NCBI GenBank assembly: GCA_964475465.1 | Contig: CAYYXA010000047.1 | Span: forward strand, 20,466 to 84,465 | Source: an uncultured Brevinematales bacterium | Lineage (GTDB): Bacteria; Spirochaetota; Brevinematia; DTOW01 | Reading direction: 5' to 3' | Length of the DNA: 64,000 nt | Notes under the pieces: model-generated | The model's input: only the letters and a program-made list of their open reading frames with translations | Databases searched by the model: none | Told to the model about the DNA's origin: nothing | Shown here: piece after piece, positions 5,052 through 53,836 of the stretch | How positions within the stretch are numbered: position 1 is the stretch's first letter | Layout of the letters: each line of letters opens with the position of its first letter | Program-made: the position numbers and the translations under genes

Positions 5052-5741
5052 CTATTTTGTAATTCTGTCTTTGGTTATTTTTAGTTCTCTTTCTACTTCT
5101 TTTCTTATCTTTTCTGCTAATGTTTTGTTATCATCGAAGAGAATACTTACGCTTGTATCTCCGTTTAATCTTTTGATAGTTCTTACTATGAGTAATCCGA
5201 TGTTTACGGCGTCTAGAAGTGCTTTGTTGTCATGTAGTGGCATTTTGGTTCTTTTTGAGTAAGCCATTGCCCATGGTGGTAAGATGGCACCCATTGAGTT
5301 TAGAGTTGCTAGTAGGTAGCTACCGGCGAAACTTGCACCGTCGTCTGCACATGTTGTAATTACGCCTACAACTTTACCTTCCATGTAGCTAGGTTCACCG
5401 AATGCTACCATGTTTTCTAAAGAAGTCATTCTATCTATTAAGTTTTTAATTACGCCTGAGGGGGCAAACCAGTATACTGGTGTTGCGAAGATTATCCCGT
5501 CAGCTTCGTAAATTTTTTCTAGTAAAAACTTTCCGTAGTCTTCAAATATGCATGGGAACTTACAGTACGGTTCTTCTTCTCTTATGCAGCCTATGCAAGG
5601 TTTTATTTCACCATCGTATAGTGAGTACCATTCCGTTTTTGCACCTTCGAATTCTGCAGCCTTCAGGGCTGCAAAAAATAGTTGAGCGGTCTCTCTATCT
5701 TTATGGGGTGAACCGAGCAAGCCTAAAACTCTTATTTCCAT
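5052..5741 (-). CDS. Iron-sulfur flavoprotein (Isf) of the NADPH-dependent FMN reductase family.
   Basis: It has a flavodoxin-like fold signature and the compact cysteine motif C-x2-C-x7-C-x3-C (CIGCIREEEPYCKFPC) characteristic of Isf proteins. Confidence 0.75.
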   Translation of the reverse strand: MEIRVLGLLGSPHKDRETAQLFFAALKAAEFEGAKTEWYSLYDGEIKPCIGCIREEEPYCKFPCIFEDYGKFLLEKIYEADGIIFATPVYWFAPSGVIKNLIDRMTSLENMVAFGEPSYMEGKVVGVITTCADDGASFAGSYLLATLNSMGAILPPWAMAYSKRTKMPLHDNKALLDAVNIGLLIVRTIKRLNGDTSVSILFDDNKTLAEKIRKEVERELKITKDRITK

Positions 5742-5789: not shown

Positions 5790-6824
5790 TTAACCACTAA
5801 ACATTTTTAAGAATCTTATATCGTTTTCATAAAATAGTCTTATGTCTGTTATGTTGTATTTTACCATTGTTATTCTTTCTATTCCCATACCGAAAGCAAA
5901 GCCTTTGACTTCGTTTGGATCGTAGCCGGCATTTTTGAATACCTGGGGGTGAACCATACCGCAGCCTGCTATTTCGAGCCATCCTGAGAATGAGCAAACG
6001 TTACAACCTTTTCCTCCACATCCTGGGCATGTTACAGCTAGCTCTGCACTCGGCTCTGTGAATGGAAAGTAATCTGTTCTTAGCCTTATTTTTGTCTTGG
6101 GGCCAAACATTTTCTGTGCGAACAGCAACATGACACCTTTTAGGTCTGAGAATTTTACATCTTTATCGACGTACAAACCTTCGATTTGGTGGAAGGTATG
6201 GGAATGTCTAGCATCTACTGTGTCCCTTCTGAAGCATCTTCCTGGAGCGACGACTGCCACAGGTGGCTTGAACTTTTCCATTGTTCTTATCTGAACTGGT
6301 GATGTTTGAGTTCTGAGTAAGTATCTATCTACTATTCCTTTTACATCTAAGTAAAATGAATCGTGATCGTCTCTAGCCGGATGGTTAGGTGGAATATTCA
6401 ATCTATCAAAGTTGTAAGATTCCAATTCTATTTCTGGTCCCTCAACTACACTGAATCCCATTTCTAAGAAGATATTACAGAGTTCTTCTTTAACTGCGTT
6501 TACGGGATGTTTTGTTGGTACAATGTCATAAAGCCTTGTTAGAGTTATGTCTACCCATTCCGATTTAAGCTTCTTTTCTATTTCCAGACTTTCGATTTCA
6601 TTTTGCTTTTTCTTTATTTCCTCCTCTATTTTTTCTTTTAGTTGGTTAACTTTGCTGCCAAATTCTTTTCTCTGTGATGGTTCAACTTCGCTTATTTTTT
6701 TTAAAAGGTCTTTTATGATACCTTTAGTGCCAACATACTTAGCTTTGATCTTAGCAAGTGATTCACTGTTGCTGACTTCTTTTATTTCGTTCGAAAATTC
6801 ATCTAAGATTTTATCTAGATCCAT
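5790..6824 (-). CDS. pheS: Phenylalanine--tRNA ligase alpha subunit.
   Basis: Class II aaRS motifs are present (FRRDTVDARHSHTFHQIEGL, FPFTEPSAE, GMGIERI). No pheT is adjacent. Confidence 0.9.
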   Translation of the reverse strand: MDLDKILDEFSNEIKEVSNSESLAKIKAKYVGTKGIIKDLLKKISEVEPSQRKEFGSKVNQLKEKIEEEIKKKQNEIESLEIEKKLKSEWVDITLTRLYDIVPTKHPVNAVKEELCNIFLEMGFSVVEGPEIELESYNFDRLNIPPNHPARDDHDSFYLDVKGIVDRYLLRTQTSPVQIRTMEKFKPPVAVVAPGRCFRRDTVDARHSHTFHQIEGLYVDKDVKFSDLKGVMLLFAQKMFGPKTKIRLRTDYFPFTEPSAELAVTCPGCGGKGCNVCSFSGWLEIAGCGMVHPQVFKNAGYDPNEVKGFAFGMGIERITMVKYNITDIRLFYENDIRFLKMFSG

Positions 6825-7144: not shown

Positions 7145-8095
7145 TTAGATGTTGTGCTCTACAAATTTGACAACTTCGCTGATTATCTGTTCTATACTTA
7201 TGTTTTCTAGTTTGGCAGAGTAGTTTAGTATTACTCTGTGTCTTAGAGAATCTACCAATATTTCGTCTATGTGCTTTTTTTGTAATGTTTTATCTCCGTT
7301 TAGATAAGCTAGTGTCATACTTGCTTTGAGTATGTGTTGTGTTACTCTTGGTCCTGCTCCCCATTCAACGAATTCTTTTACTAAGGGTAAAGGTGAGTCA
7401 TTGGGCCTTGTGGCTCTGACGATTTTGACGATATACTCTACTATTTTATCTGGTACAAATGTTTTTCTTATTTCCTCTTTTATTCTGAAAAAATCATTTT
7501 TTGTTATTATTGGCTTTATGGAGGATAGGTCTGGTTCTACCTTACAGATTTTTAATTCTTCTTCTAGTGATGGATAATCAACGATTACCTGCATCATGAA
7601 TCTGTCCAGTTGTGCTTCTGGTAATGGGTATGTTCCCTCTTGTTCTAGTGGGTTTTGTGTTGCTATTACAAAAAACGGGTTTTCTAGTTCGTAGGTTCTA
7701 CCGAAGACTGTTACTTTTCTTTCTTGCATTGCTTCAAGCAATGCTGATTGTGTTTTTGGTGAAGCTCTGTTTATTTCGTCTGCTAGTAGGATGTTGGTGA
7801 ATACAGGGCCTTTCTGGAAAACTAGTTTTTTCTTACCGCTTTCTAAGTCTTCTTCTATTATGTCGAATCCGATGATGTCGGCAGGCATTAGGTCAGGAGT
7901 GAATTGTATTCTTCTGAATTCTAGGTCTAGCATTCTTGCTACTACGTTAGCCATCAATGTTTTTGCTAATCCTGGCACACCAACTATGAGTATATGCCCT
8001 TCGGAGAATAGGCAAGTTATTATCCTGCTTATTACTCTGTCTTGCCCTACGATTACTTTACTTTTCTCTTTGTTTATTTCTTCGAATAAAGACAT
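7145..8095 (-). CDS. MoxR-family AAA+ ATPase.
   Basis: Walker A (GVPGLAKT), Walker B (LLADEINRASPKTQSALLEAMQE) and the MoxR C-terminal helical region are present. Confidence 0.85.
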   Translation of the reverse strand: MSLFEEINKEKSKVIVGQDRVISRIITCLFSEGHILIVGVPGLAKTLMANVVARMLDLEFRRIQFTPDLMPADIIGFDIIEEDLESGKKKLVFQKGPVFTNILLADEINRASPKTQSALLEAMQERKVTVFGRTYELENPFFVIATQNPLEQEGTYPLPEAQLDRFMMQVIVDYPSLEEELKICKVEPDLSSIKPIITKNDFFRIKEEIRKTFVPDKIVEYIVKIVRATRPNDSPLPLVKEFVEWGAGPRVTQHILKASMTLAYLNGDKTLQKKHIDEILVDSLRHRVILNYSAKLENISIEQIISEVVKFVEHNI

Positions 8096-8193: not shown

Positions 8194-9735
8194 ATGAGTT
8201 GGTGGAGATTTATAACGATTCTCATTGTTATACTCGTTGGTATTTTGTTGCTTAAGCCTACTTATGAGTGGTATTTTGTTGTACCTGAAAGTGATAAAGC
8301 TCTTTTGTCTTTACCTGCTGAAGAGGTTAGTAAGCTTTCACCTGAGGTAAAGAAGAGGTATATGGAAGTAAAACAACTTAGGAATAGTACTGTTTTGGGA
8401 CTTGGTTTGGACTTGAGAGGGGGGGTGTATATTACTCTTGAACCTGATCCTGTCGACATGACTAACTTTTTGCTTGAAAAGTATGAGGGTGATATCGAAA
8501 AAGTCAGAGCAAATTATGCTGAGGAGTTAGAGGGCCAAGTTAATGTGATGTTAGAAGTTTTGAGGAACAGGCTTGATCAGTTTGGTGTTAGTGAGCCTGT
8601 TATAAGGAGAGAGGGGGGCAATAAAATTTCTGTTGAGCTTCCTGGAGTTTCTAGTCCTGCACAAGCAAGGGAAGCTGTTAGTAAAGCTGGAAAGCTAGAA
8701 TTTAAGTTTGTTGATGATGAATTGATGAAAGGAGTGGACAGAAGGTTCCTGAATGAGTACGGGTATATAAGGGATGTTAATGAGTTTTTATCAAACTATT
8801 CGTTGCCTGCTGATGATGAGATATTGGGTTATTATGAATCTGACGAATATGGTATTCCTGTTTTAAAGGGTTTCATTGTAGTTAAGAAAGAAGCAGTTCT
8901 TGATGGTAGTTTCTTAGCTGATGCTAGACCTGGTCAGGACCAATTTGGTAGGCCTGTTGTTGAGTTTTCTCTGACTTTGGAAGGAGCTGATATATTTGCT
9001 GACATAACTAAAAACAATGTTGGTAGAAGGTTAGCAATTGTGCTTGATGGAAAGGTTAGGTCTGCTCCTGTTATACAGACGGAGATACTTGGGGGTAGGG
9101 GTCAGATAACCGGCAGGTTCACTCCGGAAGAGGTCAATACTTTGGTTTCTATACTTAAATCTGGTGCTTTAAGTGTTAAACTCAAAGAACTTGAGGTTAG
9201 GGCTATAGGTCCTTCGTTAGGTTCTGATAGTATTAATCTAGGTATGAAGGCATCGTTAATTGGTATGTTGCTTGTTTTTGCATTTGCTACTTTCTACTAC
9301 AAAACTTTTGGCTTCATAACTACTGTTTCACTAATATTAAACTTATTCCTTACGTTGGCAGGTTTAGCAATGTTCAGAGCTACTCTTACTTTACCGGGTA
9401 TAGCTGGGCTTGCTCTAACTATAGGTATGGCTATAGATGCTAATGTCTTGCAGTTTGAGAGAATAAAAGAGGAGTTAAGAAATGGTAGAGATCTTATTTC
9501 GGCTATGAAGATAGGTTTTGATAGGGCTTTTATTACAATTATTGATACACACGTTACTGTCATTATATCGTCGTTTATATTGTCACAGTTTGGATATGGG
9601 CCTATAAAGGGATTCGGTACAACATTGCTTATTGGTATAATAGTGTCTTTATTTACATCTGTGTTTGTTGTTAGATTCTTTGCTGAGTTTGTAGTACAGA
9701 AGCTGAAGTTAAGGAATTTATCTTTTCTTATCTAG
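8194..9735 (+). CDS. secD: Protein translocase subunit SecD.
   Basis: It has a GGAG RBS, an N-terminal TM helix, a large periplasmic domain and a C-terminal 6-TM SecD/SecF fold (..AIDANVLQFERIKEE..). Confidence 0.9.
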   Translation: MSWWRFITILIVILVGILLLKPTYEWYFVVPESDKALLSLPAEEVSKLSPEVKKRYMEVKQLRNSTVLGLGLDLRGGVYITLEPDPVDMTNFLLEKYEGDIEKVRANYAEELEGQVNVMLEVLRNRLDQFGVSEPVIRREGGNKISVELPGVSSPAQAREAVSKAGKLEFKFVDDELMKGVDRRFLNEYGYIRDVNEFLSNYSLPADDEILGYYESDEYGIPVLKGFIVVKKEAVLDGSFLADARPGQDQFGRPVVEFSLTLEGADIFADITKNNVGRRLAIVLDGKVRSAPVIQTEILGGRGQITGRFTPEEVNTLVSILKSGALSVKLKELEVRAIGPSLGSDSINLGMKASLIGMLLVFAFATFYYKTFGFITTVSLILNLFLTLAGLAMFRATLTLPGIAGLALTIGMAIDANVLQFERIKEELRNGRDLISAMKIGFDRAFITIIDTHVTVIISSFILSQFGYGPIKGFGTTLLIGIIVSLFTSVFVVRFFAEFVVQKLKLRNLSFLI

Positions 9736-9743
9736 GAGGGTGT

Positions 9744-10661
9744 ATGTATAGTTTCCTCGAGCCTATTAGGAAGCTTGATTTTGTAAAGCATAGGTTTTAC
9801 TTTATTGTGTTATCGGTAGTAATAGTTGCGGTGGGTATTGTTTTGTTTTTCGTAAAAGGTGGTTTTAAACAGAGCATTGATTTTGCTGGTGGTACAAGGT
9901 TGGAGGTTAAAATAGAAGATGGTGATGCAACAATAGATGTTGTTAGGAGGGTTATATCCTCAACTGGTGTAACGAAGGATGTCACTTATGTGGGTGCCCC
10001 TTCAGAAAGGATATTCTTGATAAGTATCGGAGTAAAAGAAAATTACGAGCAAGATGTAGAAAAAGTGAAGCAAGCTTTAGTTAAAGAATTTGGAGACAAA
10101 GTTATTTTGAGAGGTGAGAACACTGTTGGCCCTAGGTTGAGTCAGGAATTTTTTAGAAATGCTATGCTTTTGTCATTTATAGTTGGCCTTTTAATACTAG
10201 GATACATTTGGGTTAGGTTTGATTTGGTATTTGGTATTGGTGCTATTGTTGCATTGATACATGACTTGCTAATTGTTCTTACCGCGGTTTTAATATTTGA
10301 TATCGAGATGGATATAAGTATTATTGCTGCTATATTGACGATTCTTGGATACTCTGTTACGGACACGGTTGTTGTCTATGATAGAATAAGGGAAAACCTT
10401 GAGCTATCCAAGAGTGCGGAGATAGAGTATATTGTTAATACTAGCATAAGGCAAGTTATAGTTAGGTCTATATTGACATCCTTTACGACACTTCTTATAG
10501 TTGTTTCGTTTATAATCTGGGGGCCAGAAAACTTGAAAGGTTTTGCTGCATCTCTCTTGGTAGGTATAATAAGTGGTACTTATTCGTCTTTGTTTATTGC
10601 TTCTCCTGTTGTAATAGAACTTGAGAAGAGGAGATTGTTAGCTAAGGAGAAGGCTATATAA
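9744..10661 (+). CDS. secF: Protein translocase subunit SecF.
   Basis: It has a GGAGGG RBS, lies immediately after secD, and has the SecF membrane domain signature. Confidence 0.9.
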   Translation: MYSFLEPIRKLDFVKHRFYFIVLSVVIVAVGIVLFFVKGGFKQSIDFAGGTRLEVKIEDGDATIDVVRRVISSTGVTKDVTYVGAPSERIFLISIGVKENYEQDVEKVKQALVKEFGDKVILRGENTVGPRLSQEFFRNAMLLSFIVGLLILGYIWVRFDLVFGIGAIVALIHDLLIVLTAVLIFDIEMDISIIAAILTILGYSVTDTVVVYDRIRENLELSKSAEIEYIVNTSIRQVIVRSILTSFTTLLIVVSFIIWGPENLKGFAASLLVGIISGTYSSLFIASPVVIELEKRRLLAKEKAI

Positions 10662-11386
10662 TGGCTGTTCTCAGAGCTGAGAACATATATAAAAGGTATG
10701 GCAAGAGGTATGTTGTTAATGGTATTTCGCTTCTACTAAATAAGGGGGAAATTGTTGGGTTTTTGGGGCCAAACGGTGCTGGTAAGACTACAACATTTTA
10801 TATAATTGCTGGCATCGTTGATCCTGATGGTGGTAATGTTTTCTTTGATGATATTAACATCACTAGGTGGCCCATATACAAGCGTGCTAATCTAGGTATA
10901 GGTTATTTGCCACAGGAGCATTCGATATTTAGGAAACTGACAGTTGAGCAAAACGTTATGGCTGTTCTGGAGTTAAAAGGATTTTATGGAAAGGAGCTGG
11001 TGAGGAGGACTTTAGAGGTTCTCGAATATATGGGGTTAATGCACGTTAGGAAAACCGTTGCTGCGGCTCTGTCAGGAGGTGAAAAAAGAAGATTGGAGGT
11101 TGCTAGAATGATAGCGCTTGAACCTAATTTTCTACTTCTTGATGAACCTTTTACAGGGGTTGATCCTATAGCCATAAACGATATACAGAAAATTGTAAAG
11201 ATGTTGAAAGAAGACAAAGGCATCGGGGTTTTGATAACTGACCACAACGTTAGAGAGACTTTGAAGATAGTTGATAGAGCTTACATAATACATCATGGGC
11301 AGATCCTTGTAGAAGGTGATGCTGATACACTGATAAATGATCCAAAAGCGAAGGAAATATATTTAGGCCACGATTTCGAAATTTAG
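10661..11386 (+). CDS. lptB: LptB-like ABC transporter ATP-binding protein (lipopolysaccharide export ATPase family).
   Basis: Walker A (GPNGAGKTTTF), the ABC signature (LSGGEKRRLE) and Walker B (LLLDEPF) are present. The LptB-type C-terminus (KEIYLGHDFEI) and the LGIGYLPQE motif are also present. Confidence 0.8.
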   Translation: MAVLRAENIYKRYGKRYVVNGISLLLNKGEIVGFLGPNGAGKTTTFYIIAGIVDPDGGNVFFDDINITRWPIYKRANLGIGYLPQEHSIFRKLTVEQNVMAVLELKGFYGKELVRRTLEVLEYMGLMHVRKTVAAALSGGEKRRLEVARMIALEPNFLLLDEPFTGVDPIAINDIQKIVKMLKEDKGIGVLITDHNVRETLKIVDRAYIIHHGQILVEGDADTLINDPKAKEIYLGHDFEI

Positions 11387-11543: not shown

Positions 11544-12897
<1,354 letters not shown>

Positions 12898-12911
12898 TTT
12901 GGGGTGTGAGT

Positions 12912-13106
12912 ATGCCTAAAAAGAATAAACCTAATACATCTGCTCAGAAGAGGTTTAAGGTTACAGGTACCGGTAAGATTTTGAGAAGACAGGAAGGAAT
13001 GAGACACTTGCTTTCTGATAAATCAAGAAGAAGAAAAAGAAGACTTAAGAAAGAAGTAGAAGTTGTAGGAGCTAGGTATAGAAAAATTCAGCAGATGATT
13101 GGATGA
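12912..13106 (+). CDS. rpmI: 50S ribosomal protein L35.
   Basis: It begins MPKKNK...KRFKVTGTGKILRRQEGMRHLL...KRRLK. The true ATG is at 12912; the ORF track starts at a GTG at 12906. Confidence 0.85.
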   Translation: MPKKNKPNTSAQKRFKVTGTGKILRRQEGMRHLLSDKSRRRKRRLKKEVEVVGARYRKIQQMIG

Positions 13107-14347
13107 TTTACATTTCACCTTATGAAAGAAGAAAAGTGATTTTAGGAGATCTCGTTGAGGAGAGATCTCCTTCTGTTGTGTTCCTAAAGAAAGCAAGTTC
13201 AGGTTACGTTCCATCTTCTAGTGTTTCTTTCATTAGTTACTTAGATCTTAAGGTTTTTGATAAATGTGATGAAAAGTTCAGTTTGTTTTTTCTTGATCCT
13301 GAGGTAGTTGATAATCTAGGGAACGATTACATTGATTTAATTAAAAGAATCTCAAGAAACAGAAATTTAGATTCTGTGTTTATAGTTTCTAGGTCACTAT
13401 CTGTGAATGGAGTTATTAACTTTCTTAGGAAGACTGATTTGAGCAAGTTTGTTAAGGAAAAGAAGATAGTGATTGATGTGGCTAGATTACCCAGAATTTC
13501 TGTACTCATGACAGAGAAGAAGTTTTATGAGCTTGTTCGCTTGCTGAATTTACTTAGTAAGAGAGGTTCAAAGAGGGTAGTTGTTGTGGCTACAAGAAAT
13601 AGTTTAGAGTACTTGGAGAGAAGGTTAAGGAATATTGGAATAAAGGCGAAAGCTTATCTTTCGTCGTATGATGAAAGAATTAGAAGGAGGGTTTTGATCA
13701 ATTTTCGTTTGGGTAGGTATGAGGTTTTGCTAGTTTCTAGAGGCTTTTTTAAGGCTTATAAGGGGATTTTGAATCTTGGGGTTGTAGTTTATTTTTCTCC
13801 TCCTGTTACTTTTTTAGATTTTTTTAGGGATTTGTCTAATTTCTCTTCTGAGGTTGGTTTTGATGGTGAAATTTTTGTTTTGTTCTCGGAGCGTGATGAG
13901 AGAGTTGTTTCTAGGATAATTAGGAGACACCAGAATATGGATAAACATTGTTTGCGTTTTGTTAACTTTCTGTTTTCTAAGGATAAGGTTGGGGCTATTA
14001 AAGATTATTTTTTAGATGGATACATTCGTGCTAAGTTGCTTTACGGTTTCGATGTAAATTTTTCGATTGATGGTTATTTTTATCGCGATGACTACGGTAT
14101 TGCGGACGCTCGTAATGTAAAATTTGTGGAAGTTGATGATCTGAAAGGTGGCTATTGGGAGATGAGAGATATAGTTAGTTTGCTTTTGGGATTAGATGAA
14201 GGGATGAGGTTTTATAGGGGGTTTGGTAGTATGAGGGGGCGAAGAAGTGATGAAGTTAAGGAAATTATTTATTCGGCTTTGAACGAAGGATTTTTGGATG
14301 TTAGGTTTTTCTTGAGAGATGGAGTTTTAGTTAAGAAGTTTTTTTGA
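13103..14347 (+). CDS. Hypothetical cytoplasmic protein that retains only a degenerate helicase C-terminal (RecA-like domain 2) fold. It is predicted to be catalytically inactive.
   Basis: The ATGA overlaps the rpmI stop. Residues from about 140 to 290 resemble DEAD-box motifs IV-V (RVVVVATRNSLEYLERRLRNIGIKAKAYLSSYDERIRRRVLINFRLGRYEVLLVSRGFFKAYKGI). There is no Walker A, no DEAD box and no HRIGRTGR. Confidence 0.5.
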   Translation: MIYISPYERRKVILGDLVEERSPSVVFLKKASSGYVPSSSVSFISYLDLKVFDKCDEKFSLFFLDPEVVDNLGNDYIDLIKRISRNRNLDSVFIVSRSLSVNGVINFLRKTDLSKFVKEKKIVIDVARLPRISVLMTEKKFYELVRLLNLLSKRGSKRVVVVATRNSLEYLERRLRNIGIKAKAYLSSYDERIRRRVLINFRLGRYEVLLVSRGFFKAYKGILNLGVVVYFSPPVTFLDFFRDLSNFSSEVGFDGEIFVLFSERDERVVSRIIRRHQNMDKHCLRFVNFLFSKDKVGAIKDYFLDGYIRAKLLYGFDVNFSIDGYFYRDDYGIADARNVKFVEVDDLKGGYWEMRDIVSLLLGLDEGMRFYRGFGSMRGRRSDEVKEIIYSALNEGFLDVRFFLRDGVLVKKFF

Positions 14348-14415
14348 GTTTCAAAACGCTTGAAAATTTACTTTCGAACTTTTTTAATATTTATAAGACG
14401 GTAGGGGGATTATGT

Positions 14416-16035
14416 ATGGATAATGTGAACAGGAGGATAAGGCGACAGAAAGCGATAAAGGAGTTTTTGACAGCTTTAGCTTTTTTATCACCTAACTTTT
14501 TCGGATTCTTGCTCATAACAGCGTTTCCTATAGTTGCAGTTTTCCTTTTGGCTCTTACGGAATGGGATGGTATTAGCTATGCTTCTAGGGCTGAGGGTGA
14601 GGTTCAATTTGTTCCTGTCAAAACTCTAGATAAGGATGTTTTTATACCTAAGGGTACTGAGGTGAAAGGTGAGGTTATAGTTGAGAAGAGATTTACGGGT
14701 AGAATGAACAAGGAGCTTGTTGGGTTTAGTGAGATAAAGCTGCCGAAAGTGGGTGATGATTTTGTAATTCCCGTTAGTGTTAAAGGAGGTAAGGAAGCTT
14801 TTACTTATAGGTTTCCTGAAAATTCTGAATTTATAGTTGAGATTGCTCTTTACATTACTAATAAAGTGACGAATAATGGGACTATTTCCGAAGTTGTAGA
14901 AATTACTAATGCTAAGGTTAGGTTTGTCAGTACTTCAGAGTTTGAGGTTACTACTGGAACTTCAATTGAGATTGTTGGTAAGATAAAGGAAGTTGTTGAA
15001 GGAATATATCCGGAGGGAGCCTTTGTGCCTGTTGAAAACATTACTGTTAGGGGAATTCACAAAACCGTTGTGAAGTTTGATGGCCTAACTACGGAGAGTG
15101 TTACTATTCCAGCTGGTACTGAGCCTATAGATATAGGTAAGATTGGTATGACTATTGAAGGATATTTTGCCAAAGTTATTTCGATTAAGCCGGGCGAAGA
15201 GTTTAACTTGCCTGAAGGTAAGGTTTTGGCTATTGAGGGATTTCCGGAGGTTAAGGCTGTTGTTAGCAAAGCTTTTATAAACGGTAAAACAGGCATAAAG
15301 TTTGTGGGTCTTGATAACTTCAAAAAATTGTTTACCAGGGATAAAGATTTCTGGAGATATTTTATAAACACGTTGATATTTATGTTAGAGGTTCCGCTAG
15401 GTATGGCTTTTGCCATAATTCTAGCTTTGGCGTTGAATCAGAAGTTGAAGGGAATAACTGTGTTTAGAGTTCTTTATTTCTTGCCTTACATATCAAACTT
15501 GGTTGCTGTTGCCATGTTGTGGAGATGGATATATAACGACAATGGGCTCCTTAATGACTTCTTGAAGTCTTTAGGTGTTATTAATCCGCCTAGCTGGCTT
15601 GGTGATGGGAATTGGGCTAAAGTTGCTATAATTGTCATGGATATATGGAAGAATGTTGGTTATACAATGCTAGTTTATTTGGCTTCTTTGCAGCAAATAC
15701 CTTCTTATTTGTACGAGGCAGCTGAGATTGATGGAGCTAACGGACTTCAGCAATTTGCTTATATCACGTGGCCAATGTTAGGTCCTACAAACTTCTTCTT
15801 GATCATTATCGGTATAATAAATGGTTTCCAGGCGTTTGGTTCTCAGTATGTTTTGACTGGTGGTGGTCCTGCTGGTGCTACCAAGACTATCGTTTACTAC
15901 ATATATAACAATGCTTTCCAGTGGTTCAAGATGGGATATGCTGCCGCTCTCTCCGTGTTCTTGTTCTTCGTGATGATGATATTCACTATAATTCAGTGGA
16001 AGATGGGGCAAGAGTCCACCACTTCCTCTTGGTAA
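14416..16035 (+). CDS. Sugar-type (CUT1/MalF-like) ABC transporter permease with an insert of about 270 aa between TM1 and the conserved GLDNF motif.
   Basis: A GGGGGA RBS precedes the ATG at 14416 (the ORF track starts at a TTG at 14344). The C-terminal half carries the permease EAA motif (EAAEIDGANGLQQFAYITWPMLGP). The large hydrophilic beta-rich insert lies between TM1 and FVGLDNFKKLF. Confidence 0.75.
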   Translation: MDNVNRRIRRQKAIKEFLTALAFLSPNFFGFLLITAFPIVAVFLLALTEWDGISYASRAEGEVQFVPVKTLDKDVFIPKGTEVKGEVIVEKRFTGRMNKELVGFSEIKLPKVGDDFVIPVSVKGGKEAFTYRFPENSEFIVEIALYITNKVTNNGTISEVVEITNAKVRFVSTSEFEVTTGTSIEIVGKIKEVVEGIYPEGAFVPVENITVRGIHKTVVKFDGLTTESVTIPAGTEPIDIGKIGMTIEGYFAKVISIKPGEEFNLPEGKVLAIEGFPEVKAVVSKAFINGKTGIKFVGLDNFKKLFTRDKDFWRYFINTLIFMLEVPLGMAFAIILALALNQKLKGITVFRVLYFLPYISNLVAVAMLWRWIYNDNGLLNDFLKSLGVINPPSWLGDGNWAKVAIIVMDIWKNVGYTMLVYLASLQQIPSYLYEAAEIDGANGLQQFAYITWPMLGPTNFFLIIIGIINGFQAFGSQYVLTGGGPAGATKTIVYYIYNNAFQWFKMGYAAALSVFLFFVMMIFTIIQWKMGQESTTSSW

Positions 16036-16053
16036 GATTTTAGGAGGTGTTTT

Positions 16054-17004
16054 ATGGCTAAGACAAAAGAACAATTTTATGGTCAAAGTCTTGTTGAAGA
16101 GAGAAAAAGGAAAGAGATGATAAGTAATTTGATTGCTTACATAATTTTGTCTATTGGTGCTTTTACTATGGTTATACCTTTCCTTTGGACTATATCTACT
16201 GCTTTGAAGGATCCTTCGGATGTTTACGATGGTAGGTTTATTCCCCAAAGATTTTCTTACATCTACGTTGACAAAGACGGAAAGTTTGTTCCTGGCAGTG
16301 CATACAGAGAAGGTTATAAGGAAGTTAGATCATGGTGGGCTAACTTTGTTAAGGCTTGGATAGCAGTTCCGTTTGATAAGTATTATAGGAACAGCTTGAT
16401 AGTTGCTACGATAACAACTTTGGGGCAGCTTGTTACTTGTACTCTTGCGGCTTACGCTTTTGCTAGGTTGAGATGGTTCGGCAGAGATGCCGTTTTCTTA
16501 TTGTACCTGGGTACGCTCATGGTGCCGTTCACCGTTACAATGATACCTGTTTACATACTATTCAAATTGCTTGGGTTGGTGAACACCCTCGTAGCTGTCA
16601 TATTACCTGCTCTATTTTCTGCTTTCGGTACTTTCCTACTTAGGCAATTCTTTGTGTCCATACCGTATGATCTAGAGGAAGCTGCTTTTATAGATGGAGC
16701 TAATAGACTTCAAATACTTTGGCATGTGATATTACCTTTGTCCAAGGGTGCTCTTGCTACACTAGGTACATTCACATTCCTATTCCAATGGAATGATTTC
16801 TTGTGGCCATTGGTCGTTTTGAACTCTGATGAGGTTAAAACTATACCGATTGGATTGACAGCATTCCAGTCTGCTTATGGCTCTCAGTGGGAACTTGTTA
16901 TGGCTGCTTCTTTAATAGCGTTGATTCCTGTTATATTAATATACCTATTTAACCAAAGGTTCTTCACAGAAAGCATCATGCTTACAGGTTTCGGCGGAAG
17001 GTAA
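16054..17004 (+). CDS. Sugar-type (MalG-like) ABC transporter permease.
   Basis: It has a GGAGG RBS, six TM helices and the EAA motif (EEAAFIDGANRLQILWHVILPL). Confidence 0.85.
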   Translation: MAKTKEQFYGQSLVEERKRKEMISNLIAYIILSIGAFTMVIPFLWTISTALKDPSDVYDGRFIPQRFSYIYVDKDGKFVPGSAYREGYKEVRSWWANFVKAWIAVPFDKYYRNSLIVATITTLGQLVTCTLAAYAFARLRWFGRDAVFLLYLGTLMVPFTVTMIPVYILFKLLGLVNTLVAVILPALFSAFGTFLLRQFFVSIPYDLEEAAFIDGANRLQILWHVILPLSKGALATLGTFTFLFQWNDFLWPLVVLNSDEVKTIPIGLTAFQSAYGSQWELVMAASLIALIPVILIYLFNQRFFTESIMLTGFGGR

Positions 17005-17008
17005 AGTT

Positions 17009-17031
17009 AAAAGGGGTTTTACCCCTTTTTT
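17009..17031. terminator. Rho-independent terminator (AAAAGGGGT-tt-ACCCCTTTTTT).
   Basis: It is a perfect GC-containing hairpin flanked by an A-run and a T-run, 5 nt after the permease stop. Confidence 0.65.
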
Positions 17032-17348: not shown

Positions 17349-18155
17349 TTAGCTAATTTTTACGTTTTCAAAGAGTTCGTCTATCTTTGAGGATATGTTC
17401 TCTGCTTTCATTAGTGTTTCACCAATAAGGAAGGCATTGAAACCTACCTTAATTAGTCTGGTTATGTCATCTTTGGTTTTTATGCCGCTTTCAGCAACTT
17501 TTATAGGTATTTCTTTGGGTATCTTTTCGAAAATTTTTTCCTGGTTTTCGATTGATACTTCAAGAGTTTTTAAGTTTCTGCTGTTTACACCTATCATATT
17601 TATGGGTAGCCCTTCCACCTTTACTAGATCTCTTTCGTCGTATATTTCTACTAATGTATCTAATCCTAGTTCCTGAGCGATAATTAGGTATTCGGATAAT
17701 TGGCTTTTTGTTAAACATGTTGCTATTAGAAGAATGCAGTCAGCACCTAAGTAAGCGCTTTCGTATATTTGGTACTCATCTATTATGAAATCTTTCCTTA
17801 GAATGGGTTTGTTTGTTATATTTTTTACTCTCTGGATATACGAAGGGTTGCCTTTAAAGTACTTTTTTTCAGTTAATACTGAGATACAGGATACATAATT
17901 GTTGTCGTTGTATACCTTGGCAACGTCTTCGGGGGATAGATCATCCCTTATTATGCCTTTTGAAGGCGAGGCGAATTTTATTTCTGCTATTAGCCCAGGT
18001 TTCGATGATGATATCCTGTTTAATAGCGAATTGAAGAATTTCCTTTCTGTTGATTTAGGTTTTTCTGTGAGTAAGCTTTTTATGTCCTTTAGGGGTAACT
18101 TCTGTTTACATTCGTCGACTTCATCTATTTTATCGAGCAAAATTTTCTCTAGCAT
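17349..18155 (-). CDS. trpC: Indole-3-glycerol phosphate synthase.
   Basis: It has the IGPS fold signature (LIAEIKFASPSKGII...ILRKDFIIDEYQIYES...). The start is placed at MLEKILLDK; the ORF track extends it to 18194. Confidence 0.8.
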   Translation of the reverse strand: MLEKILLDKIDEVDECKQKLPLKDIKSLLTEKPKSTERKFFNSLLNRISSSKPGLIAEIKFASPSKGIIRDDLSPEDVAKVYNDNNYVSCISVLTEKKYFKGNPSYIQRVKNITNKPILRKDFIIDEYQIYESAYLGADCILLIATCLTKSQLSEYLIIAQELGLDTLVEIYDERDLVKVEGLPINMIGVNSRNLKTLEVSIENQEKIFEKIPKEIPIKVAESGIKTKDDITRLIKVGFNAFLIGETLMKAENISSKIDELFENVKIS

Positions 18156-18544
18156 CCTTAGTTTAATAATAAACCAAAGATAAGTTTTATTCAAGTTCTG
18201 GGATATTCTATTAAGAGTTTCAATGGGAAGATATAGTTATTCTCTACGTTTCGTGCTCTTTTTGTTTAAAACACTGTGTATAAAAACTATGTAACTACAA
18301 GAGTAGTTATTTCCAATTGAAGAGATTTTCTTAGGTGATCATTTTGAAAAAGTTAATTAAGTTTTGCAGATTTTTTGTTTTGTGTTGTATATTTTTATGG
18401 ATTTGGAGGTCGAGTATGATAGACTTCGGTAGGCTCATTAAGGAAAGTTTGTCTTTTAGCAAATCTGAGAGTTTACCGAAGTTTCAGGAATTAAAAAACG
18501 AGGTTAGTGAAGACATGGACTCTTACTATAAGGAGGTGGTGTAT

Positions 18545-36350: not shown

Positions 36351-36425
36351 GGGGTTGTAGCTCAGCCTGGTCAGAGCGCTGGTCTGTCACACCAGAGGTC
36401 GCGGGTTCAAGTCCCGTCAACCCCG
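36351..36425 (+). tRNA. tRNA-Asp (anticodon GTC).
   Basis: It folds into a cloverleaf: acceptor GGGGTTG/CAACCCC, D-arm GCTC..GAGC, anticodon stem CTGGT/ACCAG with loop CTGTCAC, and a T-arm GCGGGTTCAAGTCCCGT. No CCA is encoded. Confidence 0.9.
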
Positions 36426-50192: not shown

Positions 50193-50639
50193 ATGGTTAG
50201 AGTTAATCTTTTGAATGAGTATGGAGAGGTGGGTATCCCTGAGAGGAAAATAAAAGAGGTGATTAGGTGGGTTCTGAAGGAGATGAATAGGGATAATTCT
50301 GAGCTTAGTTTGGTCCTGTGCAACAACGATTACATACACTTTTACAATAGAGAATACAGAAAAAAGGATTACCCGACAGATGTTCTATCTTTCGTTGATG
50401 GTGAGAGAGTGGGTAAGATCACTTATCTTGGGGATATAATTATTTCAGTTGATAAAGTTAAATCTCAGAGTGAGGAGTATGGAGTGAGTTTTGAGGAGGA
50501 GTTTTCTAGACTTTTGGTTCATGGGATACTTCATCTTTTAGGGTATGACCATGAAACTAGTGAGGATGATGAGAAGGTAATGATAGGTATACAGGATAGA
50601 CTTGTTGATGAGGTGGTGAAAAAATTTTTTGGTCATTAG
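50193..50639 (+). CDS. ybeY: Endoribonuclease YbeY (rRNA maturation factor).
   Basis: The motif HGILHLLGYDHE is present. Confidence 0.85.
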   Translation: MVRVNLLNEYGEVGIPERKIKEVIRWVLKEMNRDNSELSLVLCNNDYIHFYNREYRKKDYPTDVLSFVDGERVGKITYLGDIIISVDKVKSQSEEYGVSFEEEFSRLLVHGILHLLGYDHETSEDDEKVMIGIQDRLVDEVVKKFFGH

Positions 50640-53600
50640 TATATGCTTTCTATTATTTCTTTTATTGTGCTTATCTTTTCGGCTAGATTATCAGTTTTTA
50701 TTTTTAGTAATATTTCGTTTTGGGCTCTTTGTGAAAATTCAAGAGGGTACTTGTTGCTAAGAAGTAGAGCTGTGAACTTTTCGGGATCCGGTAGACTTTT
50801 GGGTGAAAATCTTATGTATATGCCCTCTGAAGATTCTGATACTTCTTCTATTTGGTACTTTTTTAGGTAGATTCTGAACTTTACTATTTCTGATAGTTTT
50901 AGCAGACCTTCTGGTAGTATTCCATATCTGTCTTTGAACTCTTCAAGTATGAAGTTTAATTGTTTCTCGGTGAATGCTATATTTAGCTTAAGCATTATTT
51001 CTATCTTTTCGCTGTCGGGGATTTTTATGTCTGGTGGGAATATTCTGTCAAATGTGAAGTATACTACAGGATCTGAATACTCGATTGGCTCACCGCCTTC
51101 CGCTACAATTCTTAGTGTTTCTGATAGCATTCTTGTGTAAAATACATATCCTACGCTTTTTATGTTGCCGTGTTGTTCTTTGCCTAGCAGGTTTCCCGCC
51201 CCTCTCATTTCTAAATCTTTTAGTGCTATTCTGAAGCCTGCCCCCAGATCTGAGTGTTCTTCTATGGCGTTTAGTCTTTTCATCTGGAGTTCCGTTAAAA
51301 TGTACTTAGATGGATATATAAGGTAAGCATATCCTTCTATACTTCCTCTACCGACCCTACCTCTTATCTGGTGTAGATCTGCTAGCCCGAACATATGAGC
51401 GTTGTTTATTATTACTGTGTTGACGTTTGGCATGTCGAGCCCTGACTCTGAAATTATAGTTGATACCATTACCTTATACTTGTCATTTAGAAAATCGAGG
51501 AATACGTTTTCAATTGTTGATCTATTGAGTTGCCCATGAAGTAGACATACATCCTTTTCATCTATTATCTCTTTCGACAATTCTAGTATCTTCTCTTTTA
51601 ATTTGTCTATTGTTTCTACTTTGTCATTAATTATCAACACCTTTCCGCCCCTTTCGATTTCGTGTTTTATTGCTTCTCTTATTATCTCGTTGTTCCATTC
51701 TACTATGAAGGTTTTTATTGGTTTCCTCGATTTTGGAGGTGTTGTTATCAATGAGATGTCTCTTAGATTTGCCAGGCTCATGCCTAAGGTTCGTGGTATT
51801 GGTGTTGCCGAAAGCATTAGGACATCTATATTTTCATAACCTTTGAGTATATTTTCTTTGTGAGTGACGCCGAATTTGTGTTCTTCGTCAATTATTATTA
51901 GGCCTAGGTTCTTGAATCTTTTCAGTGCCCCATTCTCTGAAATTAGTGAGTGGGTGCCTATGAGTATGTCTATGTTGCCCTTTTCTACCTCTTCTAGCGT
52001 TTTTTTTACTTCCGAATCAGTTTTGAGCCTTGATATTACATCAACTTTGACGCCGAAGTTTTCAAATCTTTTTGAGAAATTCCTGAAGTGCTGTTCAGCA
52101 AGTATGGTAGTAGGGACGAGAACCATTACCTGCTTGCCGTTTAACACATAGAGATATGATGTTCTCATCGCTATTTCAGTTTTGCCGAATCCAACGTCAC
52201 CGCAAACAACTCTGTCCATTACTTTGTGAGAGGTGAGATCGTTTTTTATCTCTTCCATAACTTTTATTTGGTCTGGTGTTTCTTCATAAGGGAAACTATC
52301 TTCAAACATTTCGTATTCCTCAAAGTCAACTCTCATTGGTTCCTTTGAGAATGATTGCCTAGTTGCTTTTATTCTCAGAAGGTCCCTCGAGAACTTTAAT
52401 ATGCTTTCCTGTACCTTCTTTTTTATTGATTTCCAGTTTTCTTTTTTGAGAGAGCTTAGTTCTACCTTTTCGCTGCCTATGTATTTGCTCAATAGATTAA
52501 ACTGTTCAGGTGGTAAGTAAAGTATGTCTTCATTTGCGAACTCTAAGACAGCGAATTCTTTAGGTTTGCCGAGATAGTTTAGTTCCTTTAGTCCTCTAAA
52601 TATTGCTATTCCATAGTTTGCATGTACTACGTAGTCACCTTCCTTTACTTTTTCGAAAAAGAAGATATCTTTTAATTCTTCTGAAGATAAGGAATTATCT
52701 TCAAACTCGTATCCGAATTCTTCTTTCCCAAAAAGCTCTTTAGGTGTGATTGCCATTATTTCATTTGATTCGGCACCGTTTGGCAGCAGGATACCTTCGA
52801 GTATCAGTACTTTGCCTTTTTCATGATTTTCCAATAGGTTGTTGTCAAATTTTTTTATTTCGAAAGGAATTCTATATTTTTCGAATAGTTTTTTGGCCTT
52901 TGTTGTATATTTCTCATTTGGTGAGAAGAAAAAGATTGTTTTAGAGAGGTTGGATAAGATGTATTTTGAAAGTAGTTTATAATTAGGTAGAATGCTATTA
53001 GAAGTTGAGAAGTTGGGTAGACTTTCAAATTTGGTTTTCTCTATGTATTTTATTTTTTCTAAGTTTTCTGTGATTAGTTCGCTGGGAGGTAAAAAATTTT
53101 CTTTGTTCTTTGTTTCATGATAGAGCTTTTCAATCCTTTCTTTCAGAGAAAGAAATTTGTTGATTAGCGTATCTTTAGGTATCAGTGATATAATATTTCC
53201 TATTTTCTCTAACTCTATCAGGCTTCTTAGTTTGGTTTTGAAAAGTGTGCTCAAATCACATTCAAATGGTGGATATATTGTTACTTCTTCTAGTTTTGAT
53301 ACACTTACTTGTGTTTCTGGGTCAAATACCTTTATTGCTTTAATTTCGTCAAATTCAAATACTATCCTTACAGGGTTTTCATAAATTGGTGGGAATATAT
53401 CGACAGTGCTTCCTTTGTGTGTCATTGTGCCATAATCTTCTACTTTCTCAACTACTTCGTAGTAGTTACCTAAGGTTTCGAATAGTTTGGTTAGGTTTTC
53501 ACCTTCACCTACTCTTAGGGATGTTATTGGACATAAGTTATCTTCGTTAATTGTTTTTATACAAGCTCCTTCAAGTGAGGTGAGAACCACGAAGTTTTTT

Positions 53601-53836
53601 CTGGTTATTAGTTTTATCAGAGTGTTTTGCCTATCTTTGAGGTTATCGATCGGTGGTACTGAATTTATGTATGGTACTATGTTTAGATCAGGGAAAGTTA
53701 GGAAATTTAGTCCTTTTGTTAGGTTATTTATAGCGTCTAATTCTTCCTCTTCTACTATTACGATTGCGTTTTGAGAATTTTTTATGTCGGGATCAAAGAG
53801 AATTTCGTAAAGCCAGTTATAATTTTTCTTTAGCAT
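50636..53836 (-). CDS. mfd: Transcription-repair coupling factor.
   Basis: It is a superfamily-2 helicase (GDVGFGKTE, DEEH) with Mfd-specific N- and C-terminal modules. It is 1066 aa. Confidence 0.9.
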   Translation of the reverse strand: MLKKNYNWLYEILFDPDIKNSQNAIVIVEEEELDAINNLTKGLNFLTFPDLNIVPYINSVPPIDNLKDRQNTLIKLITRKNFVVLTSLEGACIKTINEDNLCPITSLRVGEGENLTKLFETLGNYYEVVEKVEDYGTMTHKGSTVDIFPPIYENPVRIVFEFDEIKAIKVFDPETQVSVSKLEEVTIYPPFECDLSTLFKTKLRSLIELEKIGNIISLIPKDTLINKFLSLKERIEKLYHETKNKENFLPPSELITENLEKIKYIEKTKFESLPNFSTSNSILPNYKLLSKYILSNLSKTIFFFSPNEKYTTKAKKLFEKYRIPFEIKKFDNNLLENHEKGKVLILEGILLPNGAESNEIMAITPKELFGKEEFGYEFEDNSLSSEELKDIFFFEKVKEGDYVVHANYGIAIFRGLKELNYLGKPKEFAVLEFANEDILYLPPEQFNLLSKYIGSEKVELSSLKKENWKSIKKKVQESILKFSRDLLRIKATRQSFSKEPMRVDFEEYEMFEDSFPYEETPDQIKVMEEIKNDLTSHKVMDRVVCGDVGFGKTEIAMRTSYLYVLNGKQVMVLVPTTILAEQHFRNFSKRFENFGVKVDVISRLKTDSEVKKTLEEVEKGNIDILIGTHSLISENGALKRFKNLGLIIIDEEHKFGVTHKENILKGYENIDVLMLSATPIPRTLGMSLANLRDISLITTPPKSRKPIKTFIVEWNNEIIREAIKHEIERGGKVLIINDKVETIDKLKEKILELSKEIIDEKDVCLLHGQLNRSTIENVFLDFLNDKYKVMVSTIISESGLDMPNVNTVIINNAHMFGLADLHQIRGRVGRGSIEGYAYLIYPSKYILTELQMKRLNAIEEHSDLGAGFRIALKDLEMRGAGNLLGKEQHGNIKSVGYVFYTRMLSETLRIVAEGGEPIEYSDPVVYFTFDRIFPPDIKIPDSEKIEIMLKLNIAFTEKQLNFILEEFKDRYGILPEGLLKLSEIVKFRIYLKKYQIEEVSESSEGIYIRFSPKSLPDPEKFTALLLSNKYPLEFSQRAQNEILLKIKTDNLAEKISTIKEIIESIY

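Follow-up and report, generated by a model that had tools for sequence, protein, structure and literature searches.

What takes the place of rplT behind rpmI when the two genes are parted, and how is it tied to its new neighbours? The operon infC-rpmI-rplT is near-universal in bacteria and among the most conserved operons of ribosomal proteins (r-proteins). The question is raised by a stretch of 64,000 nucleotides (nt) from an uncultured Brevinematales bacterium (contig CAYYXA010000047.1; hereafter the window), in which rpmI, the gene of ribosomal protein bL35, is preceded by the enolase gene eno and overlaps an open reading frame (ORF) of 414 amino acids (AA) downstream. This ORF, named X here, had been described in a first-pass annotation as a catalytically dead relative of helicases, coupled to rpmI on one side and to two permease genes on the other. 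The overall best explanation, which we hold to be reasonably probable, is an eno-rpmI-X operon with a translationally coupled pseudohelicase X, the permease genes being incidental.

Conserved order of eno, rpmI and X

All features are on the plus strand unless stated otherwise. The first gene of the triad, eno (11599-12897), starts behind a strong Shine-Dalgarno sequence (SD; AGGAGG), and the Pfam families Enolase_N/C are listed for eno in related loci. The 213-nt gap 5' of eno contains a weak promoter-like site (11544-11573). The gene rpmI (12912-13106; 64 AA) follows 14 nt past eno with its own SD, GGGGTG, and its product matches Pfam Ribosomal_L35p (8.6e-18) as well as TIGR00001 (60 bits, exceeding the cutoff of 51). 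X extends from 13103 to 14347 and encodes a basic protein (isoelectric point, pI, 9.6), which profile, fold and motif evidence assign to the pseudohelicases of superfamily 2 (SF2). Reading of the sequence confirmed that the rpmI stop codon TGA and the X start codon ATG share ATGA at 13103-13106, rpmI ending in ...ATT GGA TGA and X beginning with ATG ATT.

Related loci are cited by L numbers. The order eno-rpmI-X was present in 10/10 lineages examined (the window, L003/L006, L004/5, L007, L008, L009, L010, L011, L012 and L016), down to about 22% identity of X, and in every X family member with a readable contig. The synteny check proposed with the first-pass annotation thus came out in favour of X being kept after rpmI, in Brevinematia. 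The same annotation had placed the DNA in Thermotogae, which is wrong, the source being Brevinematia, a class of Spirochaetota. Several of the L35 homologs with 60-97% identity carry the NCBI names Brevinematales bacterium or Brevinematia bacterium, and the sole match among 185,579 species genomes is named ‘MAG: Spirochaetes bacterium RSWP19’.

The gene after X varies. It is the first of two ABC permease genes in the window, L001, L003 and L006, ExbD in L004/L005, an SSF transporter in L007, a flavin reductase on the opposite strand in L008, L011 and L016, a SufC-like ABC ATPase in L010 and an unannotated ORF in L012. At two loci with a more distant L35 (60% identity; L013, 1640-2941, and L014, 1464-2765), eno and rpmI are adjacent without X. 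An unrelated 346-AA ORF without Pfam match is found 54 nt past rpmI there; it was considered as a diverged X and rejected (hhalign probability 0.1%). The L35 of L015, more distant again (51% identity), is encoded in the canonical order thrS-infC-rpmI-rplT-pheS-pheT, which supports the earlier statement that X occupies the slot normally held by rplT. That neither infC nor rplT adjoins rpmI had also been stated correctly, as tblastn searches with L20 and IF3 found neither in the 64-kb window nor at any X-bearing locus. The whole window was further scanned against Rfam at gathering threshold and no L20 leader or operator and no other r-protein leader was found. In Brevinematia, rpmI is thus placed outside infC-rpmI-rplT and in a compact eno-rpmI-X operon.

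Two observations on the gene neighborhood are added. In the window, pheS stands alone on the minus strand (5790-6824), with a MoxR-type AAA ATPase gene upstream (7145-8095) and an FMN reductase gene downstream (5052-5741). It is neither preceded by rplT nor followed by pheT; hence, the cluster thrS-infC-rpmI-rplT-pheST is dispersed in this genome. In L004/L005, and in this lineage only, RNase Y is encoded on the minus strand (11693-13261) just past ExbD, about 450 nt downstream of X. The vicinity of RNase Y and enolase to X recalls degradosome-type associations of enolase, helicase and RNase.

Predicted fold of X and loss of the catalytic motifs

The structure of X was predicted with AlphaFold2 using an alignment of 11 family sequences (mean predicted local distance difference test, pLDDT, 79.8; predicted template modelling score, pTM, 0.79); a prediction using three sequences only (pLDDT 46.6) was too poor for use. 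The model consists of a trimmed first RecA-like domain (RecA1), a second RecA-like domain (RecA2, residues ~137-262), a helical subdomain (~263-315) and a winged helix (~350-414). With these two predicted tandem RecA-like domains, X has the fold of the SF2 superfamily. In a Foldseek search against the PDB, the top four matches were the bacterial RecQ cores 6CRM, 4TMU, 1OYW and 1OYY (E 2e-14 to 8e-13), the alignments spanning about 460-470 columns. The next ranks were mostly taken by RECQL5, BLM and RECQ1, and DEAD-box cores covered fewer columns. The helical and winged-helix parts, modelled with pLDDT 82-94, match the D2-Zn-WH part of RECQ1, with the four zinc cysteines being absent. An HRDC domain is lacking in X; Pfam gave no match and the protein stops directly after the winged helix.

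The first-pass annotation had recognized a helicase C-terminal pattern in the middle of X and expected Foldseek to return a catalytically dead RecA domain 2. That domain was indeed found, the two strings quoted for it exist (KRVVVVATRNSLEYLERRL, residues 157-175, and EVLLVSRGFFKAY, residues 207-219), and Helicase_C matches X below threshold (E 8.5e-4; 20 bits vs. the cutoff of 23.5), with 2/11 members being matched at all. Too narrow was the restriction to this domain, since the model shows a trimmed two-lobe core, with RecA1, the helical domain and the winged helix present too.

Sequence comparisons are less decided than the fold. In a profile alignment, X and E. coli RecQ are colinear over one stretch (X 72-397 to RecQ 154-481), which takes in the region of the aromatic loop, motif III and RecA2 as well as the winged helix and what was the zinc subdomain; the match is statistically weak (pairwise E 0.006, probability 6%). 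The E. coli RecQ sequence used agrees with the available stretches of 1OYW. When the N-terminal third of X was aligned to RecQ using hhalign, LDPE fell in register with DEAH and SxS with TAT, which is statistically not significant; for two RecQs with long inserts, RecA2 alone was covered. BLASTP aligned residues 51-266 of X to a DEAD-box protein with 26% identity (pairwise E 4e-10). Among the NCBIfam models, RhlE1 and RecQ match X, both near 7e-4. Based on the model, X is an SF2 pseudohelicase of RecQ-like architecture, whose ancestor may have been a RecQ or a DEAD-box protein.

Walker A, DEAD and the arginine finger had been reported missing from X, and this holds for the whole family: a regular expression scan of 11/11 members found none of G..GK[ST], DE.[DH] and GR.GR, and Pfam DEAD (PF00270) does not match X. 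Where the corresponding strand ends, at the position of motif II, LDPE replaces DExD/H, and SRS stands at the position of SAT/TAT. The position of motif VI reads RDLSNFSSEVGFDG in X of the window and YDxxNIxSKxY in the distant clade, without GRxGR. The P-loop region, both motif VI arginines and the zinc cysteines are absent, and the interval from strand 1 to motif II counts about 30 residues instead of about 95. Aligned by eye, the N-terminus PSEKRK..IGE.I.L.SPTLII appears to correspond to the Q-motif/motif 0 helix and to strand 1, and about 60 residues with motifs I-Ib would then be missing before the strand 59-64 and LDPE. As an internal control, full-length Mfd (TRCF; 50636-53836, minus strand) scored 98 bits with DEAD and 74 bits with Helicase_C; genuine helicase motifs are thus easily detected in this genome. 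According to these alignments, X has lost every residue required for ATP binding or hydrolysis.

X as an intact and fast-evolving family

A word-index search yielded three X clusters (at 100, 73 and 50% identity). In an exhaustive profile search of 1.84 billion representatives, nine full-length members (377-413 AA; E 1e-12 to 1e-221) were obtained, each being the representative of a 50%-identity cluster. Beyond X members, this search returned ordinary helicases only, which match RecA2 alone. At least one further member was retrieved by a word-index search with the 11-sequence profile, and a metagenome scan with an alignment of the distant clade returned a single locus. Over all lineages, the length of X is 377-414 AA and the pI 9.1-9.8.

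Among members which are 22-27% identical, the alignment of 11 sequences contains 23 invariant columns. They include P23, P66-E67, S96, K140, P234, F240, S262/D265/E266, N288-F289, Y302, Y351, G363, G375, G379 and the terminal KK. The LDPE motif is near-invariant (D65 is N in one member), and SxxDE, NF and GFG..RG are common to the members. One family member gave a match to Utp25_C at chance level (E 0.002).

The ratio of non-synonymous to synonymous substitutions (dN/dS) of X was 0.24, 0.13 and 0.18 for the three closest pairs, and 0.02-0.04 for eno, rpmI and permease 2 (permease 2 vs. L003, 0.03). Between the window and L004, X is 50% identical, eno 90% and L35 87.5%. In ten lineages, the ORF is uninterrupted by frameshifts or stop codons. 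The substitution pattern indicates that X is under purifying selection and is a functional gene, though a fast-evolving one. Because the length is kept in all lineages and selection is purifying, X is not a pseudogene; the frameshifted remnant, which the first-pass annotation itself had named as a refuting outcome, is not what was found.

No Pfam, NCBIfam or PADLOC model covers X, and the only name given by any source is ‘hypothetical protein’. Literature searches returned no account of eno-rpmI operons, of the X family or of their arrangement, in agreement with the earlier claim that the arrangement is undescribed. A defence-system reading of X was dropped, PADLOC giving only chance-level matches to the helicase domains of DpdF and PbeA.

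Start site and probable translational coupling of X

The spacing from rpmI to X in the ten lineages is -4, -4, -4, -1, -1, -1, -1, +1, 0 and +12 nt. The duplex energy with the anti-SD within 20 nt before X ranges from +0.2 to -1.4 kcal/mol in 10/10 lineages. The rpmI starts of eight lineages reach -6.0 to -11.5 kcal/mol (window rpmI, -6.0), and SD energies in the same range were calculated for eno, secF, the ABC ATPase gene at 10661 and both permease genes of the window. Termination-reinitiation is classically recognized by a start codon which lacks an SD and abuts the stop codon of a strongly translated cistron. In its sequence, the pair rpmI-X has both marks of translationally coupled cistrons, a missing SD and an abutting stop codon. 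A precedent exists in E. coli, where rplT is expressed via translational coupling to rpmI (PMC1865079). Since the SD is absent and the start coincides with the rpmI stop codon or is a few bases away from it, we infer that X is translated by termination-reinitiation coupled to rpmI. X would then be translated only by ribosomes which have just finished L35, and its output would be tied to that of L35 at a lower fixed ratio. From the annotated ATG onwards, the N-terminus (M..I.PSEKRK) is conserved. An internal start past the SD-like hairpin arm described below was rejected, as none is in frame or conserved.

A conserved RNA hairpin within X

The 5' end of X contains an RNA hairpin (13144-13171), which is formed by AGGAGATCTC and GAGATCTCCT with -17.8 kcal/mol in the window and is flagged as terminator-like by the terminator scan. 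At X +42 to +69, a hairpin of 7-12 bp is found in 9/10 lineages (-9.7 to -18.3 kcal/mol), with z-scores of -2.2 to -4.9 in 9/10 lineages compared to dinucleotide shuffles. Synonymous codons were resampled with the amino acid sequence fixed and codons drawn from local usage; the hairpin is more stable than the resamples in 9/10 lineages (p 0.0007-0.013), which are not independent of each other but differ in their codon pairs. In a gap-free codon alignment, 83% of the hairpin cells are paired vs. 44-64% with a slid partner. Both sides have changed in four pairs, one example being the synonymous exchange of third positions from GGA/TCT to GGG/TCC. The 5' arm resembles an SD (AGGAG or GGGGAG), and a U-rich tract follows the hairpin in the clade of the window and not in the distant clade. 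Situated 41 nt into X, the hairpin probably lowers the ratio of X to L35 further. Candidate roles are a partial attenuator, a stabilizer of the 3' end of the abundant eno-rpmI message, a barrier to elongation, a brake on X, and a protein operator.

The permease pair downstream of X

Between X and the first permease gene lies a spacer of 68 nt (14348-14415). Permease 1 (UgpA/MalF-like, 539 AA; 14416-16035) and permease 2 (UgpE/MalG-like, 316 AA; 16054-17004) both match BPD_transp_1. The clean terminator which had been claimed behind them corresponds to an intrinsic-terminator-like hairpin, AAAAGGGGTTTTACCCCTTTTT, found by the terminator scan at 17009-17030, 3' of permease 2.

Permease 1 starts with ATG at 14416, 68 nt past the X stop codon, behind the strong SD GGGGGA (duplex energy -9.3). 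The spacer is 94% identical to that of the 73%-identity relative, and the synonymous sites of the flanking genes differ by 38-43%. It contains the promoter-like elements TTGAAA (14360-14365) and, after a 19-nt gap, TAATAT, which were not listed by the consensus scan. Because the spacer is conserved and carries TTGAAA...TAATAT and a strong SD, the permease genes probably have their own promoter and ribosome binding site in it. The gene after X differs in 7/10 lineages; therefore, comparison of the loci places the permease pair outside the conserved eno-rpmI-X unit, as a clade-specific neighbor. Neither the coupling of X to the permeases nor their inclusion in a functional unit with X, both parts of the first-pass annotation, is borne out.

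The annotation was right in that ATPase and binding protein are missing: the window yielded neither a binding protein nor a MalK-type ATPase, and its sole ABC ATPase (10661-11386) is of LivG/LptB-type. Two BPD_transp_1 permeases without an adjacent substrate-binding protein or ATPase do not make up a CUT1-type importer. In permease 1, an extracytoplasmic insertion of ~280 AA without Pfam match (residues ~35-315) is situated between the first and the second transmembrane segment. Together with the absent binding protein, it raises the question of a tethered substrate-binding or docking domain. The permease 1 gene of JGI contig L003 (8135-9755) is interrupted by a frameshift near residue 92; the corresponding stretch of L006 (11314-11967), a closely related contig of a metagenome-assembled genome, is uninterrupted. 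The frameshift probably reflects an error of assembly or a disruption at the level of the strain.

Proposed function and alternative explanations

Several points weigh against an eno-rpmI-X operon with a coupled pseudohelicase. X evolves far faster than its neighbors (20-73% identity vs. 83-93% for eno), and sequence alone does not separate a RecQ ancestry from a DEAD-box ancestry. Neither abutment nor hairpin is absolute, as a 12-nt gap separates rpmI and X in L016 and the hairpin is absent in L007. Nothing links X physically to the ribosome. A search covering the window and the X-bearing loci did not locate rplT and infC in X-bearing genomes. The gene order could persist merely because X is without a promoter of its own, and operon, coupling and hairpin role are all deduced from sequence. 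As to the function within this operon, we tentatively prefer to see X as an ATP-independent, nucleic acid-binding scaffold or chaperone, which may act in RNA or large-subunit metabolism and would be made in proportion to L35. It is rather doubtful whether X is, more specifically, a large-subunit biogenesis or RNA factor and as such a counterpart of Utp25, with its dosage hard-wired to bL35 and the hairpin serving as feedback operator for X or for an r-protein. In that case, hairpin feedback would replace the L20-based control lost when rpmI left infC-rpmI-rplT.

Alternatively, X might be a RecQ-derived DNA-binding protein of repair, recombination or regulation, and its position after rpmI a frozen accident lending promoter and ribosomes. 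It would then be similar to the pseudohelicase PriA of Deinococcus, in which binding to DNA and to partners is kept. RecQ catalytic cores are the best whole-chain structural matches, helical and winged-helix module included; X is basic; a bacterial SF2 pseudohelicase which retains DNA binding is documented (PMC4504706); and L013 and L014 have eno-rpmI without X, so the linkage of eno and rpmI is independent of X. All this makes a DNA-binding X conceivable, if somewhat unlikely, for the SD-less abutting junction was kept while X fell to ~22% identity and other neighbors changed, which exceeds the needs of hitch-hiking, and X has neither zinc ligands nor HRDC domain. Continued enzyme activity of X, as an NTPase with a non-canonical site or with a P-loop borrowed in trans from a partner, is suggested by the conserved acidic residues D65-P66-E67 and S262/D265/E266 and is nevertheless very unlikely, as no member has a P-loop, the region from strand 1 to motif II is shortened and the motif VI arginines are absent. 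From the comparison of lineages, little speaks for a transcription unit extending from eno to 17030 in which a ribosome-linked pseudohelicase works with the permease pair. The five genes do lie on one strand, no strong terminator separates X from the permease genes while a clean one follows permease 2, and the window has no binding protein or MalK-type ATPase; however, permeases follow X only in the clade of the window, with unrelated genes in seven other lineages, and the 68-nt spacer with its strong SD is conserved far above synonymous sites, which renders such a partnership highly improbable. Decay of an ordinary DEAD-box or RecQ gene would account for the loss of all catalytic motifs, the fast evolution relative to the neighbors and the subthreshold Helicase_C match. 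It can hardly be reconciled with a length kept without frameshifts or stop codons in ten lineages, dN/dS of 0.13-0.24, 23 invariant columns at 22-27% identity and a confident fold prediction, and is therefore scarcely credible. The eno-rpmI-X operon with a coupled pseudohelicase is hence preferred.

Further features of the window

Upstream of the triad, secD (8194-9735), secF (9744-10661) and the LptB/LivG-type ABC ATPase gene (10661-11386) follow each other. The first two were assigned by ORF listing and direct reading, the third by its LivG/LptB-type C-terminal tail. Beyond the terminator-like hairpin, trpC (17349-18194) is encoded on the opposite strand (ORF listing). The only Rfam match of the window at gathering level is a tRNA gene (36351-36425). 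The G+C content of the window is 36%.

Significance and comparison with known systems

To our knowledge, few helicase-derived pseudoenzymes are documented in bacteria. X would be a clean natural case of one which is under selection for a non-catalytic job. The near-universal operon infC-rpmI-rplT has come apart throughout one class of spirochaetes, and the cistron apparently coupled to rpmI encodes a non-ribosomal protein instead of L20. If X acts on rRNA or on pre-50S particles, it would represent a new type of bacterial assembly factor; otherwise, it would still serve well as a model of reinitiation without SD and of RNA structures located within coding sequences. The family could be given a Pfam or NCBIfam model.

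X is 10-17% identical to the RecQ core (E. coli and C. sakazakii RecQ, 1OYW, 4TMU and 6CRM; human RECQL5, BLM and RECQ1). Unlike RecQ, it lacks motifs I/Ia, the motif VI arginines, the four zinc cysteines and HRDC, has LDPE in place of DEAH and a RecA1 shorter by about 60 residues, and is encoded in an operon with a ribosomal protein gene. Compared to the DEAD-box proteins SrmB, DbpA, CsdA and RhlE and the eukaryotic Dbp10 and DDX28, X is devoid of Q motif, Walker A, DEAD and HRIGRxGR. Another difference from these DEAD-box helicases of ribosome biogenesis is the tail, for which the model gives a winged helix of RecQ type rather than an RRM-like RNA-binding domain.

Closer in kind are two proteins which work without helicase catalysis. 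Yeast Utp25 is a pseudohelicase of the small subunit (SSU) processome and takes part in ribosome assembly (PMC9539457), and PriA of Deinococcus radiodurans has kept binding to DNA and DnaB without ATPase activity (PMC4504706). In both, an SF2 fold having degenerate or dispensable helicase motifs is combined with retention of the protein, which still serves in binding or as a scaffold. X, with its predicted SF2 fold, may be of the same kind; it belongs to a different family and a different lineage. With respect to gene arrangement, the closest system is infC-rpmI-rplT, in which L20 regulates its own operon and rplT is translationally coupled to rpmI (PMC1865079, PMC1888825). In both arrangements, the cistron after rpmI seems to depend on translation of rpmI. 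While infC and rplT are absent from the Brevinematia locus, eno has come to lie upstream of rpmI, and X appears in the place of the coupled cistron.

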